Positions 38,201-47,200 of a stretch of 64,000 bases of DNA are shown piece after piece (the first letter of the stretch is position 1; every line of letters starts with the position of its first letter). Source of the stretch: Podarcis vaucheri (taxonomy: Eukaryota); assembly GCA_965113315.1 (NCBI GenBank), contig OZ220371.1, one strand, 5' to 3'. Made by a program: the position numbers.

Positions 38201-41200
38201 TTTGTGGTTTAACCCACAGCACCAGGAGCTGTTAATGTACACTGAGAGGATGGCCTACACTGGCTCTGTTATCCTCCACAAGTAACTTTTGAAGGATTTC
38301 TTCTTTTTTGAAAAGGCATTTGCTTTGAATGATTTTTGGGTTTGCTTACAGAACATTGCATGTTAAGATGGCATCTGTCAGTGATCGGGAAAAGGTCAGC
38401 TCTTGGAACACTTTGGTGCTCCCAGACCTACCCAGCGGACCGCTGGATGCCTACCGGAAGAAAGCATCCTTCAGCTGGAAAGAGATGGCACTCTTCGTAG
38501 AGGAAGAAGATCTCCTCCGTTTTAAAGTAAGGCTTAGAATAATATTTCTTTAAAAGCGATGTTGCAAATTAAACACAATCTGTCATAACCCCCCTTAAAG
38601 TATCCAATATGTACCATTAAATTCTGGTTCCTGGGGGGTTAGGGTTAAGGGATTCACATGGCCAGGGACCTTTTCTTGGGTCAAGAGAGCCATGATCCTT
38701 GATAAACAGGGATTTGAGGTGTTTTTGTTTTTGTCAGTGTAAATGGCCGTCCAGTAAGTTACTTTACATTTTGATAGGACTGTGCATGATGTTCATGCTT
38801 AAAGGGTTTTCCATCTAGGACTGGGTAAAAACAATATTCTCAAAAATATTGGAAGCCTTTTGAGGAGGGGATAGATTTCTTCTGTATTGTGTTTTTGATC
38901 TGGAGGAAAACCTCACAATTATATTGGTATAAAATTGAAATTATGCACTTCTTTATCAGATCCAAACTTCTACTGCTTTTAGTGCAGTACATGAAATGCA
39001 ATATCTATAATAATGATTCAAAGAGCTTTTAATCAGTGAGGCAACATTTGGATGTGAACTTATGTAATATTGCTTTTAAGATGGTTGACATTTATTAAGT
39101 TTTAAACGGCTTCCTGATTGTCCTTGTACATTTCTTATGGCATAGGGAAATGACTAAATGTGTTAATATATAAAATATGAATACTTCAGTTCAATGATAA
39201 ATTCAAATCTGACGTTCAACTATTCTGATGTGTTTCTTCCATGAAGAGCAGAATATTCTCGGCTCTTGAAAATGACCCTCTCTTTGCTCGTCACACTGGA
39301 GAAGAATTACCTCTTGAGAAATACCGTGAACTAACCTTCCTCCGCTGTAGGAAACTCTTTGAATATGATTTTCTACGGCTAGAAGACATAATTGAGAAAC
39401 CATTAAAAGTTGTAGCGGTGATTACTTGCCTGGGGATGTATGACTGGTCTCTAGGAGCCAAATATTTGCTAAATTCCCAGGTATGTACAATGCAGGTGTA
39501 AGCTCTTTTATAGATTTCCTTAAAGACTCAAGCCTACTAGCAAAGCATTCCATTTTTATTTTGGATAAATATTTTTGGAGATTTCATCTGAGCTGCTCTA
39601 TGTACGCTTTTGATTTAGAGGCTACAGTGGCTTGACACTTTTTTCACGTGGTAATTGTAGTGAAAACTTCATTGCTTGAACATACACCCTCCACAATAGT
39701 CTATTGATATTTGTTTTTAATTTCTTTTTGCTTTTAAATTGCTTTTCACTTATTATTATTTCACTTATTATTACAGTCATACCTCTAGTTGCGTTCGCTT
39801 CATGTTGTGGATTTTGGGATTGCGAACGTGGCAAACCTGGAAGTGTATACACAGCGTTCTGTGCGCTTCACACATGCGCAGAAGCACCCTATTGCACTCT
39901 GCACTTGCGCAGAAGCGCTGCTCTAGTTGCGGACTTTTTGGGGTGCGAATGGCACCCTGAAATGGATCGTGTCCGCAACTAGAAGTACCACTGTATCATT
40001 ATTAGTAGTATTGAATTTATATACCGCCCTATACCCGGAGGTCTCAGGGTGGTTTTAGAATGTTATTCTTGTTGGAAAACTAGCCCCCTCGGGAGAGGCT
40101 GGCCTCTCTCCCCGCTCCCGGAGCTTGTTTACCGGTGATCTTCCTCTGGCTGGCATCCCAGACAGACCAGGGAGATCTTGATAGGCGACATCTCCCAGTG
40201 GGGAAGATGCACACCCCCTTCTCCCTTCTCCCCTTTCACAGGGGAAAGAAGAATAGTCAGAAAGTCCTTTTACATCTTGTTTATTTCTGACTGTACAACT
40301 CTACAGAAAACATTCCCGATCAGTTCAAACTTCTCCAAGTAAGTGACTCAGACTTCCTTTACAAACGCAACAGGAAGGTCTCATATTACACACGGAACAA
40401 AGCCTTGTGTATCCCGTGAACTGCCTGGAAGATTCTTTCCCAGGACTAGCCACATCATGGGATGTAAACAAGCTGCCAGTTTGCAGCTGCAATGTACTCA
40501 TATTGTAACATCCTCCCCCATATGAATCAACGTTAGCTGCGAACAAAGCTTCATCCAGAGAAGAAAACAAACAGTTGTTATACACGTAACAATCCCCTGT
40601 TGTTTCAGTTCCACCTTTGGAACTACCTGCCACTGGTTTCACCAGTGTAACTCTCTGGTTGTCTGTTTTCCAAGGAATGAGTGCTTCTGCATTACCTTGG
40701 GTAGGGAAAGTTGTGTTGCGCTCAGTAACTCCCAGTTGTGTCTTTGTCTCTGACTTAGACACACCTTTAACTTGTCTAGAGTTGTCAACAATAGTAACAC
40801 ATGCAACAGCAGAGTTAGCAAACTCTTGAGAATACCTTTTTGGTGGTACGCCCTTTGTGATTCTCTCAGACCTGCGTATGAGGTGCTGATCCTGTTTGCT
40901 GACTGGTTTATCCTCAGGACCTTTTGGAGAACCACGCCCAACAGTAAATAGTGGTTCAGTTCACTTCTAGTTCAGCCTTAACCTGTGTAGGTGCTACGAT
41001 ATGAGAACAACGCAGCTGCAAACTGGCAGCTTGGTGAAAACATCACATGATGTGGCTAGCTGTGGGAAAGAATCTTCCCGGAAGTTCACAGGCTTCACAA
41101 AGCTTTGTTCAGTGTGTAATATGAGACCTTCCTGTTGCGTATGTAAAGGAAGTCTGTGTCACTTGCTCGATGGAGACTGAGCAGATCGGTCATGTTTTTG

Positions 41201-44200: not shown

Positions 44201-47200
44201 CTCCCTTCTCCCCTTTCACAGGGGAAAGAAGAATAGTCAGAAAGTCCTTTTACATCTTGTTTATTTCTGACTGTACAACTCTACAGAAAACATGCCCGAT
44301 CAGTTCAAACTTCTCCAAGTAAGTGACTCAGACTTCCTTTACAAACGCAACAGGAAGGTCTCATATTACACACGGAACAAAGCCTTGTGTATCCCGTGAA
44401 CTGCCTGGAAGATTCTTTCCCAGGACTAGCCACATCATGGGATGTAAACAAGCTGCCAGTTTGCAGCTGCGATGTACTCATATTGTAACAATTCTTTGGT
44501 TTTACGGTATATTTTTATATGGTTGTAAACCATTGTGATATGTTTTTATGATACAGTGGTATATAAACATTTTTATAAATAAATAAATTTATAAAACTGG
44601 TATCAGAATTATAAACCATTATCTCATCATGTCATCTAATCATCTGACTGTGAGAAATGATTAAACTACTGTTTCTCTACTTTTATTTAAACCATTTCCC
44701 TGTGTTGATACAGAGCTAGGTCAGATTCTGATTGAAGCTAACAGAATTGCACTGTCTCCTTTGGGTTTAAGCTAAGCTGGTTTTTGTCATACAGGGAGCA
44801 AAGCAGACAGTCTACAAAACCTCCTAGTCGCTTACAGCAGTGATCTGAGCTGGCCAAGAAACCTTTAGGGTTAAGAAGGACCTAATGGTGTAAAGAGTAT
44901 GTAGCATCTTCCTAAAGTTCTCCCTTTTGGACAGACACGGATGGTGCCACACAGGCAGAATTCCCACCTGACATTCCACCTGACAAACCCTTTTAAACAA
45001 GTAGTATCATTATTCTGACACCAGTGGGCAGCAACACAAAAGTCCTGATGAATAGGAAGAACAAACTCTCCCCAGCTTCCCATTAGGAGGAGGAGGCAGG
45101 ATGGGAAGACCTGAAACATGGTATGTCTCCTGGTATGTCCCACAGAGGACCTTATGGTCTTCAAACAAAAACATATTGGAGGTCCGGGGCCACAGGGAGG
45201 TTACGCTGGCCTCAACCAGAGCCAGGGCTTTTTGGCTGTGGCCCTGATCTGGTGGAACACTGTCACAAGAGACTAGGGCCCTGCGGGACTTGACATCTTT
45301 CCGCAGGGCCTGCAAGACAGAGCTGTTCCACCAGGCCTTACCCTCCTTTGGTAATCCTCACAGAACTCTAGCCCAATGGTTGCCCTTAATTTGATTTGAA
45401 CTGATTTTATAATGATTTAATTTTGGAATGCTGTATTATTTTACTGTTGTTAGCCGCTCTGAGCCTGGCTTTGGCTGGGGAGGACGGGATATAAATACAA
45501 TATTATTATTATTATTATTATTATCATTATCATTTTCGTCATCATCATTATGGCAGTGGAAGGATTTACCTCTATATCCTCACTAGATCTTTACCAGAGC
45601 CTTTGCGTGTCAAAGGTTGAAAACGAACACATTCCATGTTTTATTTTATTGTGATTGTCAAACTTACTCAACAGTTCAATTCAGCCTCATCACCCTTTTG
45701 GGATCAACGGATGTGTCCTGGGGACATATTTTATTGGCTCCTGCCCTTCTTTTCATGTTGGGTGTATGATCACATGCATCCTGGGTGTGGCCAACACATC
45801 CTTTTGGGATGGAGTGGTTCTGGTCATCTTGAAAGAGACAGTGATACGGCCACTCCTTGAAAAAATCACCCTCGGCCCATTGCCTCGTGACGACTACTGC
45901 CCAGTTACAAATACCCCTTTTTTGGAAAATTGATTGAGAGGGTTGTGGGATGGTGGCAAGTGCTCTAGGATGAAACCTGTTCTCTTCACCGGCCTTGAGA
46001 AGATATTGTACTATTGCTTAATAATAATCCAGAGATCAAGGAATCATTCATTTTTATTTTCATTATTTCACTTTGCAGCTGAAACCAGGAGGAAAATTAT
46101 TTTCTTGTAATGAAGTTGTGTTTCCTGATGCAGAATAGCGTAAAATATCACAGAATAGCATTTTCTCCTAGGAAGGGAGCAACTTAACACTTGACTTGTG
46201 GTTTGAGCTGTGAGCAGTGATGCTTTTCTATCTCAAATCTTTATTGAACATGTCATTTTGACCCCTTCCTCTACTTTAACAAAAATATTTTTACTATTTA
46301 TCATTTACATCAGCTAATTGTCTTTAATGTTTACAGGTGTTCAAAAGTGCAATTGAGAGTTCTGGCTCAAAAAGACATGAAGAATTTATTAAAGATAATG
46401 AAAATATGAAGGTACTCTTTAAACTACCTAAATCAATCTTTGCTTTAAAATACCAGTATATATACTGCCACTAATTTTGAGTTAATGGTGTTTCTAAAAA
46501 CAAGATTATTAGCTACGTATACTAATGAAGCAATACCTGCAAATCTCTTGTAAAATAGTATCTCCTATGGAGTTACTTCATTTTGATTTACTAGTGCTTC
46601 TCTGTTTCTGTCGGAAAACCATAATTAAAGTTTCTTACAGTGGAAGGGATGAATTATCTGGATCAGTTTGCTTATTCATCATTTATGAAACTACTGCAGG
46701 ATCTTCACTAATATCTAATACAAATTTATAAGGCAGTAGTTCAAGAAGTGCCTTGCAGCATCAAATCAGCAGAGTGCAGTCCTTCAGCACAAAGCCACAA
46801 ACATACCTGTCCAAAAGATGCTCACCTTGCTTCAGTTAAGGGTGATGCAGGTAGAAGCAGGATTCCACATTCGTATCCTAAGCTGTATACGTCAATTCTG
46901 TGTGCATGACCCCTATTCCCACAACCAAACAGTTTTCAAAAGGTGTGAACTTAGCCAAGGGATGAAGAGCCTGTTGCCATGTAGATGTTGTTGAACTCCA
47001 GTTCCCATTAGCACCAGCCAGTGCAACCAGCAGCCAGGGATTATGGGAGTTGTAGTCTGGCAACATATACAGGGCCACAGAATCCCCACCCTGGCATAAA
47101 AAAAATGTTCAGAAAGGGAAGTACTGCTTCTCTGAACAGTGGGATTGGAGAAAGCTGATCCTCCTTCTAAAGGACTCTATGCACACTCCTTTGGATAAAG

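Follow-up and report, generated by a model that had tools for sequence, protein, structure and literature searches.

Can a long terminal repeat (LTR) retrotransposon that encodes no reverse transcriptase (RT) belong to a lineage that goes on making new insertions, or is such a copy the remains of an autonomous element that lost the enzyme where it lay? The question is raised by a real LTR retrotransposon, a copia element located at 40070-44490 on the minus strand of a 64-kb stretch of contig OZ220371.1 from Podarcis vaucheri (the whole stretch is called the window here, and all coordinates refer to it). We favor the first answer and put at roughly three in four the probability that the element represents a semi-autonomous, RT-less Ty1/copia lineage of lacertid lizards that is mobilized in trans. 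An earlier note on this DNA had proposed a non-autonomous vertebrate copia lineage, and the proposal is supported by the layout that the element shares with its relatives and by their grouping in a single clade. The lineage appears to have kept two LTRs, a primer-binding site (PBS), a polypurine tract (PPT), and a single long frame, which codes for Gag and protease, for an integrase-like module that is not catalytic, and for a short tail. The loss of RT and most of RNase H, of the integrase zinc domain, and of at least one catalytic residue appears to predate the split of the known subfamilies.

Loss of Reverse Transcriptase in a Lizard Lineage

The element carries a single open reading frame (ORF) of 651 codons, read on the minus strand from a start codon at 43502. 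No RVT_2 family was found by Pfam in this 651-residue ORF, and when the RT segments (RVT_2 pieces) of 47 comparators were searched against the element, 0 of 47 matched on either strand at E ≤ 0.1. Integrase segments served as the positive control for this search, and 68 of 78 gave a match (the 78 include the window frame and close relatives). Segments from the RNase H side produced short matches for 5 of 42 comparators, the best at E 0.001, and a remnant of RNase H is located at 40565..40612 on the minus strand, where 9 of 16 residues are identical to residues 1201-1216 of the autonomous relative P0016 (E 7e-5). These searches bear out the absence of RT claimed in the earlier note, and the 16-residue remnant corrects its statement that RNase H is absent as well. 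The RVT_2-type RT and RNase H that mark Ty1/copia by gene content are not to be had from this element, which belongs to Ty1/copia through descent, not gene content. With LTRs, PBS, and PPT kept and at least one replication enzyme missing, it has the composition of a non-autonomous element.

Relatives were collected in protein searches at near length (7999 candidates scored, of which 15 reached E ≤ 0.001), at longer length (46 proteins), and exhaustively among representatives (28043 at E ≤ 0.001). The best three proteins of the near-length search are lacertid gene models: P0001 from Podarcis lilfordi, with 67% identity to the window ORF; P0002, also from P. lilfordi and named "vomeronasal type-2 receptor 26-like"; and P0003 from Podarcis muralis, which bears the same name and is a visible chimera with a receptor. 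Zootoca vivipara contributes P0062, which was added by the exhaustive search, a protein of 869 residues annotated as "FAM168A isoform X1" that is 42% identical to the query and collinear with it over residues 13-642. P0062 has gag, protease, weak rve (18.4 bits), and SH3 domains, and neither RVT_2 nor gag_pre-integrs. Podarcis and Zootoca are both Lacertinae, and the RT-less relatives from P. lilfordi and Z. vivipara are 40-68% identical to the window protein. P0016, the best protein of the longer-length search, has 1338 residues in the order gag, protease (PR), integrase (IN), RT and is 34% identical over 96% of the query. Unlike the window frame, it has an RVT_2 domain (235 bits), a complete catalytic triad, and a weak match to the integrase zinc domain. 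P0063 (845 residues), likewise added by the exhaustive search, is also of the autonomous type.

The tail of the window frame indicates where the RT was lost. It is made up of the IN-RT linker plus the RNase H remnant, and 132 contiguous codons of it have 0 stops and contain no Pfam family, being recognizable only via relatives. Aligned with P0002, this stretch has 84 identical residues among 117 aligned (E 2e-28 for an 84-codon sub-stretch), and with P0062 57 among 114 (E 1e-26); in both alignments, 0 comparator residues face gaps. Against the autonomous P0016, 46 of 127 aligned residues are identical and 368 face gaps, with a longest run of 275, and these gap-facing residues take in the RVT_2 domain of P0016 (861-1103). 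Because the window DNA is contiguous across the RT-less junction, the gene models need not have spliced an RT out. The loss of RT at this locus alone, which the earlier note had named as a threat to its own proposal, was rejected, since the RT-less layout is common to P0002 and P0062, whose tails align with 0 extra residues as opposed to 368 for P0016. The other threat that it had named, relatives equipped with RT and a full triad, was likewise not found among the three closest relatives that span the integrase: P0001, P0002, and P0062 have no RVT_2 and keep 2, 2, and 0 of 3 acidic catalytic columns. The defective layout thus belongs to the family (P0001/P0002 and P0062) and not to one locus. 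Compared with the autonomous sisters, the lineage lacks the integrase zinc N-domain, RT together with the beginning of RNase H, and the final portion of RNase H.

A local accident would be the simplest account of such a locus. In that account, an autonomous copia element was inserted, a local deletion then removed RT and RNase H, and the frame remained open by luck. Internal deletions are commonplace in inserted LTR elements, and later damage is indeed present in this copy, with one frameshift and one nested insertion. However, the same junction, RNase H remnant, short integrase N-terminus, and incomplete triad are found in two other species at 40-68% identity. Furthermore, a neighbor-joining tree united the window sequence with P0001 and P0062 as a single clade in 300/300 bootstraps, and this clade was sister to the autonomous P0016 and P0063, also in 300/300. 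The result was the same with 347 columns (protease to SH3) and with 601 columns (gag to SH3, without P0001). Protein identity is 37-40% both to the autonomous sisters and between the lineage's own subfamilies. Given a single clade of RT-less proteins, three independent identical deletions are implausible, and we consider a one-off wreck very improbable.

The clade also bears on the idea of a recurrent deletion hot spot, at which RT-less forms would be born repeatedly with the same breakpoints (e.g., by template switching between short repeats) and would not last. A precedent can be found in Drosophila, where copia has several independent internal-deletion subfamilies (bioRxiv 10.64898/2026.07.11.737971). 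The lizard sequences do not behave in this way: the RT-less ones are mutually closest on columns outside the deletions (300/300), they also have unrelated derived states in common (the zinc domain is gone and the triad is incomplete), and a stretch of about 60 residues that spans the RT-less junction is homologous among them. A hot spot is therefore hard to credit, and a lasting RT-less lineage remains the preferred reading.

The names given to the relatives deserve a comment. Both P0003 and a further protein, P0071, are chimeras of element and non-element sequence, and the host-gene names on the Podarcis and Zootoca element frames are probably annotation errors. A Protein Atlas look-up with P0062 returned generic copia clusters only. 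The same resource holds several gag-protease-integrase clusters of 660-976 residues from plants, fungi, and oomycetes in which RVT_2 is absent from the listed top families; these may be truncated models or further RT-less forms.

Element Boundaries and Timing of the Insertion

The element is bounded by a 3' LTR at 40070..40510 and a 5' LTR at 44050..44490 (both named in element sense, minus strand), each of 441 bp. The two align without gaps and are the same at 436 of 441 positions; among the 5 differences, 2 are transitions and 2 are in CpG context. The termini are TG...CA, with the element sense beginning TGTT and finishing AACA, and an AATAAA motif is located near the middle of both LTRs (40280-40285 in the 3' LTR, element sense). 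Identical copies of the 5-mer ATTCT, at 40065..40069 on the left and 44491..44495 on the right, form a target-site duplication (TSD). Five base pairs is the usual length for copia and Ty1, and the duplication points to integrase-mediated insertion rather than recombination. A PPT, a 9-nt purine run at 40511..40519, adjoins the 3' LTR, and a PBS whose TGG start lies 2 nt beyond the 5' LTR occupies 44036..44047; both are on the minus strand and were read from the sequence. An untranslated leader (43503..44035, minus strand) separates the PBS from the start codon. Paired TG...CA LTRs, a 5-bp duplication, PBS, and PPT are all features expected of a Ty1/copia element, and all were located at the ends where they belong; the earlier note had described the 441-bp LTRs, with about five differences, and the duplication, PBS, and PPT. 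Copia elements are primed by initiator tRNA-Met. ARAGORN detected no tRNA gene in the whole window with which the PBS could be compared, and no Rfam families were found across 38000-46500.

The divergence of the LTRs dates the insertion relative to the loss of RT. Their Jukes-Cantor distance is 0.0114, and with squamate substitution rates of 0.8 to 2.4e-9 per site per year this corresponds to an insertion age of roughly 2 to 7 million years. Proteins that are only 40% identical have the RT-less layout in common, while the LTRs of this copy differ by only 1.1%, so the insertion would have occurred long after RT was lost. Reverse transcription and integration of this copy would therefore have been carried out by enzymes made elsewhere.

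The same features bear on whether these frames might be domesticated host genes, such as restriction factors against autonomous copia, conserved to the host's advantage, with the locus being a recent duplicate. Their frames are open despite deep divergence, the NCBI gene models bear host-gene names, and catalytically dead domains are typical of co-option. Co-option of copia gag is also known in plants and fungi (PMC8321522), although the text of that survey names no animal example. What this explanation does not provide for is the structure of the locus: near-identical LTRs, a TSD, PBS, and PPT mark a locus that arose by integration, which gene duplication would not produce, and a domesticated gene would have neither the LTRs nor the TSD that are present here. 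In addition, a related LTR has inserted into the copy, and several diverged paralogues exist in one genus. We regard domestication as quite unlikely and retain the interpretation of a mobile lineage.

Two observations on the ends can be added. A 14-nt string that runs from the inner edge of the 5' LTR across the 2-nt spacer into the first bases of the PBS (44041-44054) is repeated at 44004-44017, 37 nt deeper in the leader. The window holds 2 occurrences, where 0.05 would be expected, and among 100 shuffles a single one gave 2 matches; the duplicated string may have been left by an earlier LTR boundary or by template switching. The insertion target (39990-40069 and 44496-44600) is AT-rich and repeat-like in appearance, with short tandem repeats close by, and may itself be an older repeat.

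Gag and Protease

The polyprotein gene extends over 40511..43502 on the minus strand in the order gag, zinc knuckle, protease, degenerate integrase, acidic/IN-RT linker, and RNase H remnant, and its tail frame continues into the 3' LTR. Pfam matches above the cut-off were obtained for gag, the CCHC knuckle, and protease, each of which had been recognized in the earlier note. DUF4219, the copia gag N-terminus (PF13961), covers ORF residues 15-39 (43386..43460; 29.3 bits, cut-off 27), and Retrotran_gag_2 (PF14223) covers residues 27-186 (42945..43424; 81.7 bits, cut-off 27). They are followed by a zf-CCHC zinc knuckle at residues 221-236 (42795..42842; 28.7 bits, cut-off 20.8) and by the Pol_BBD protease beta-barrel at residues 282-357 (42432..42659; 76.5 bits, cut-off 27), all on the minus strand. 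The protease residues D285 and H291 are invariant across 79 sequences. Gag is of the copia type on the grounds of PF14223, PF13961, and a match of ORF residues 14-240 to the Drosophila Copia virus-like particle protein 8vvw_A (E 1.6e-6).

Domain order carries less information. Goodwin and Poulter are said to have noted in 2002 that some gypsy-like elements share the order protease, integrase, RT. Protease precedes integrase in the window ORF and the full gag-PR-IN-RT order is visible in P0016, but order alone is no proof. A gypsy-type element with copia-like domain order was rejected on account of the copia-type gag, the match to the Copia capsid, and the RVT_2 domain in the sister P0016. As for its class among non-autonomous elements, the locus does not fit the strict definition of TR-GAG, in which GAG is the sole coding domain, since it also codes for protease, an integrase core, and an SH3-like domain. 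An intact gag and protease frame is what defines a semi-autonomous element in the sense of PMC9744471, and such a frame is present here.

An Integrase-like Module without the Full Triad

The integrase is the most altered part of the polyprotein. A degenerate core is located at ORF residues 425-515 (41958..42230, minus strand), where rve scores 27.4 bits, below the cut-off of 32.6, and a C-terminal SH3-like domain (SH3_retrovirus) is located at residues 580-632 (41607..41765, minus strand; 23.8 bits, below the cut-off of 27). ORF residues 422-557 are matched by the Ty1 integrase of yeast, 7z0h_W (E 4.8e-6). Pfam found no gag_pre-integrs (PF13976), the zinc-binding N-domain, in the window ORF, P0001, P0002, or P0062. 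The spacer between protease and core is correspondingly short, with 72 residues in the window and 72-77 in 3 of 4 RT-less sequences as compared with 115-133 in 8 autonomous comparators; the spacer of P0002 has only 13 residues, and its gene model omits part of the stretch. All 8 of these autonomous comparators have 3/3 acidic catalytic columns, versus 2/3 in the window, P0001, and P0002 and 0/3 in P0062. Integrase catalysis needs all three D,D,E residues. The window integrase lacks two defining features of a competent enzyme, the HHCC zinc domain and the full D,D,E triad, and the erosion that the earlier note had perceived here was right in kind.

The third threat that the earlier note had named, a ratio of nonsynonymous to synonymous substitution (dN/dS) of about 1, was approached indirectly at the protein level, through per-domain identity, relative distances, conserved columns, and an analytic nonsense estimate. 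Between the window and P0062, identity is 38% in gag, 50% in protease, 47% in the integrase core (51% between P0001 and P0062), and 50% in SH3; the corresponding values for P0016 versus P0063 are 74%, 61%, 83%, and 77%. The mean percent identity to 73 more distant comparators served as an outgroup distance. For the window/P0062 versus P0016/P0063, it is 22.8/23.9 versus 23.7/24.3 in gag, 34.1/33.3 versus 33.9/32.8 in protease, 26.1/23.9 versus 37.6/36.1 in the integrase core, and 29.6/26.2 versus 31.5/31.5 in SH3. A column was counted as conserved if 90% or more of 75 autonomous comparators agreed in it. In gag, 5/5 of these are kept by the RT-less sequences and by P0016/P0063 alike, and in protease 6-7/8 are kept (6/8 in the window; 3/5 covered in P0002) versus 7/8. 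SH3 retains 2/2 (P0062: 2/3) versus 3/3, and at the 80% level 7/7 (P0062: 6/8). The integrase core retains 8-11/21 versus 19-20/21. Gag and protease thus evolve as they do in working, autonomous elements, with the speed-up confined to the integrase core.

An accelerated core is what one would expect if the integrase-like part were junk in an otherwise functional non-autonomous lineage. In this alternative, only LTRs, PBS, PPT, gag, and protease matter, and the core and tail are open by chance, by linkage, or by constraint at the RNA level (packaging signals or avoidance of nonsense-mediated decay). The core has only 8-11 of its 21 family-wide conserved columns and is the sole accelerated domain, P0062 has none of the three acidic catalytic columns, and the tail of the window copy is already out of frame. 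Set against this are the frames themselves, which remain open at 40% protein identity. Under neutral drift, about 11 nonsense hits would be expected in core plus SH3 (P of none 1.5e-5) and about 38 in the whole frame, and none was found in core plus SH3; the estimate is rough in that it assumes equal base changes, ignores indels, and depends on a gene model. The core is also no more diverged between RT-less subfamilies (47-51% identical) than gag (38%), and the SH3-like domain keeps nearly all of its conserved columns at both levels. The protein-level evidence argues against neutrality, and a junk integrase is rather unlikely in our judgment.

The preferred reading, a lineage that keeps its module, leaves room for a further and more tentative proposal. 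Catalytic constraint was lost in the integrase core and nowhere else, and the inactive integrase may be no leftover but a pseudo-enzyme that still has a function, its core and SH3 domain retained non-catalytically in every known RT-less member; we find this possible but doubtful. The idea that the retained module is a non-catalytic adaptor is speculative. In that role, it could tether particles or DNA ends of its own element to the active integrase and RT of a helper, or it could instead choose insertion sites. If the proposal is correct, a vertebrate copia has lived as a parasite on its autonomous relatives since before the split of the Podarcis and Zootoca subfamilies and has remodeled an enzyme as an adaptor. 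The combination is unusual, with gag and protease evolving as in autonomous elements and an integrase stripped of catalysis and yet retained.

Proposed Mobilization and Points against It

How might such an element move? In the proposed cycle, RNA would be transcribed from the 5' LTR, and the element's own Gag and protease would assemble and mature the particle, as suggested by their pattern of conservation. Reverse transcription and integration would then be performed in trans by enzymes of an autonomous copia, presumably from the sister clade, that could recognize the LTR ends and primer site which helper and element would have in common. The copy in the window would later have been damaged by one frameshift and one nested solo LTR. 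From the conserved frame and the age of the insertion relative to the losses, we infer particle formation and the use of helper-derived RT and IN; the lineage may still be mobile.

Several points weigh against this picture. The evidence comprises a 64-kb window and the proteins of relatives, and within the window there are no further copies of the LTR or interior besides the nested LTR. The relatives amount to only three full or partial gene-model proteins plus fragments, of which P0002 and P0003 are visibly spliced or chimeric, and the tree is a neighbor-joining tree on long branches. The nonsense estimate has the simplifications given above. The integrase core has lost about half of its family-wide conserved positions and may be in slow decay rather than in a new role. 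Finally, a copy with one frameshift and one nested insertion is no evidence of present-day activity in the lineage.

Comparison with Known Systems

According to PMC4350176, birds and mammals lack copia elements, which do occur in fish, amphibians, and reptiles. The kind of element discussed here is already known; its occurrence in this group of hosts, the depth of the lineage, and an integrase that was remodeled and yet retained are new. In the open-access literature (with supplements and repeat libraries outside this scope), no account of a comparable lacertid lineage came to light. Among the closest counterparts are RLG_Sabrina_SA and RLG_WHAM of wheat, semi-autonomous GAG-protease elements with RLG_Wilma as their partner (PMC9744471). 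Like the lizard lineage, they have an intact GAG-protease frame and no RT, have persisted and diversified over a long time, and presumably use the enzymes of a partner; in wheat, the partnership was inferred from common LTR termini and PBS (PMC9744471). They are, however, plant elements of the Ty3/gypsy type that number in the thousands, and the source describes them as having neither RT nor integrase and no integrase remnant (PMC9744471). The lizard element is a Ty1/copia element of a vertebrate with a conserved integrase-like module that has no full triad.

Sugar beet provides TR-GAG elements as well as non-autonomous families in which GAG/PROT or POL domains in decay are retained (PMC13570524). 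The resemblance lies in partial coding by non-autonomous LTR elements, and in 15 of the beet families one or more POL domains, integrase included, survive in a partly decayed state (PMC13570524). These remnants are described as decayed and patchy among copies (PMC13570524), whereas the lizard frame is open through the integrase in three species and has a domain-specific pattern of conservation. In Drosophila, copia subfamilies with deletions in RT/RNase H or IN have made new insertions (bioRxiv 10.64898/2026.07.11.737971). They belong to the same superfamily as the lizard element, and their RT/RNase H or integrase deletions likewise imply enzymes supplied in trans, but they are very young and near-identical to full-length copies (bioRxiv 10.64898/2026.07.11.737971). 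The lizard lineage is deeply diverged and combines the loss of RT with a remodeled integrase.

Among vertebrates, mouse IAP 1-delta-1 and ETn/MusD need proteins in trans and yet make most new insertions (PMC6466679). IAP 1-delta-1 is similar in being a vertebrate LTR element in which an internal deletion has produced a fused frame that is open, and the protein made from it assists in cis (PMC6466679). These mouse elements are class II endogenous retroviruses and not copia, and the 1-delta-1 deletion, as presented in that source, takes out portions of gag and pol, not just RT, and leaves no conserved dead integrase (PMC6466679). At the level of single domains, the lizard element is homologous to the autonomous P0016 and P0063, to Copia (8vvw), and to Ty1 (7z0h) in gag, protease, integrase core, SH3, and IN-RT linker.

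Long-lived partnerships between autonomous and defective-but-coding LTR elements have been worked out mainly in plants (PMC13570524, PMC9744471), and this locus, together with its relatives, suggests the same ecology in a vertebrate. It also offers a natural setting in which to learn what a retroelement polyprotein must supply in cis and what it can obtain from other elements.

Damage in This Copy and Genomic Surroundings

A third LTR copy is a solo LTR from a related family that is nested in the interior. It occupies 40992..41432 on the plus strand, inverted relative to the host element, is 441 bp long, and has its own 5-bp direct repeat, GTAGG. It is 81.4% identical to the host LTRs by blastn, and 373 of 456 columns are the same in a global alignment, with its ends being the best-conserved parts (36/40 and 15/16 columns). 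The earlier note had taken the copy to be complete, with an interior of about 3.5 kb; the nested LTR interrupts that interior and accounts for 441 bp of it, which leaves about 3.1 kb of the element's own. The uninterrupted ORF described there stands insofar as 651 codons are open, but the family frame is longer, continuing in relatives through the tail as far as the PPT, and is cut here by a frameshift. In all, the polyprotein gene of this copy has one frameshift and one nested insertion, with no in-frame stop within the aligned stretches (the pieces flanking the nested LTR were compared separately and never joined). Because the aligned tail stretches hold no in-frame stop, the damage is suggested to be young. 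P0001, P0002, and P0062 run through the points of the frameshift and the nested LTR without either lesion. The nested LTR as part of the standard family layout was rejected, as P0002 and P0062 cross the same point without an LTR.

The rest of the window holds few landmarks. Runs of N are found at 2953-3187 and 23872-24008, and a 136-codon ORF at 48030-48440 on the plus strand, in which Pfam recognizes no family, may resemble the C-terminal end of a CR1-type LINE ORF2. A GC-rich island at 36000-37500, with 61-76% GC in 500-bp windows, lies about 2.5 kb from the element and may be the CpG-island promoter of a host gene. An exon-like ORF at about 39241-39501 on the plus strand has no Pfam and no PDB match. 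In the Pfam scan of 34 window ORFs, only the ORF at 58344-58700 on the plus strand was assigned to any family, namely, ACOX (acyl-CoA oxidase; 29.5 bits, cut-off 22.1); it has no PDB match, and candidate exons were searched singly. If both ORFs are parts of one plus-strand gene, the element may lie antisense in an intron of an acyl-CoA-oxidase-like gene.

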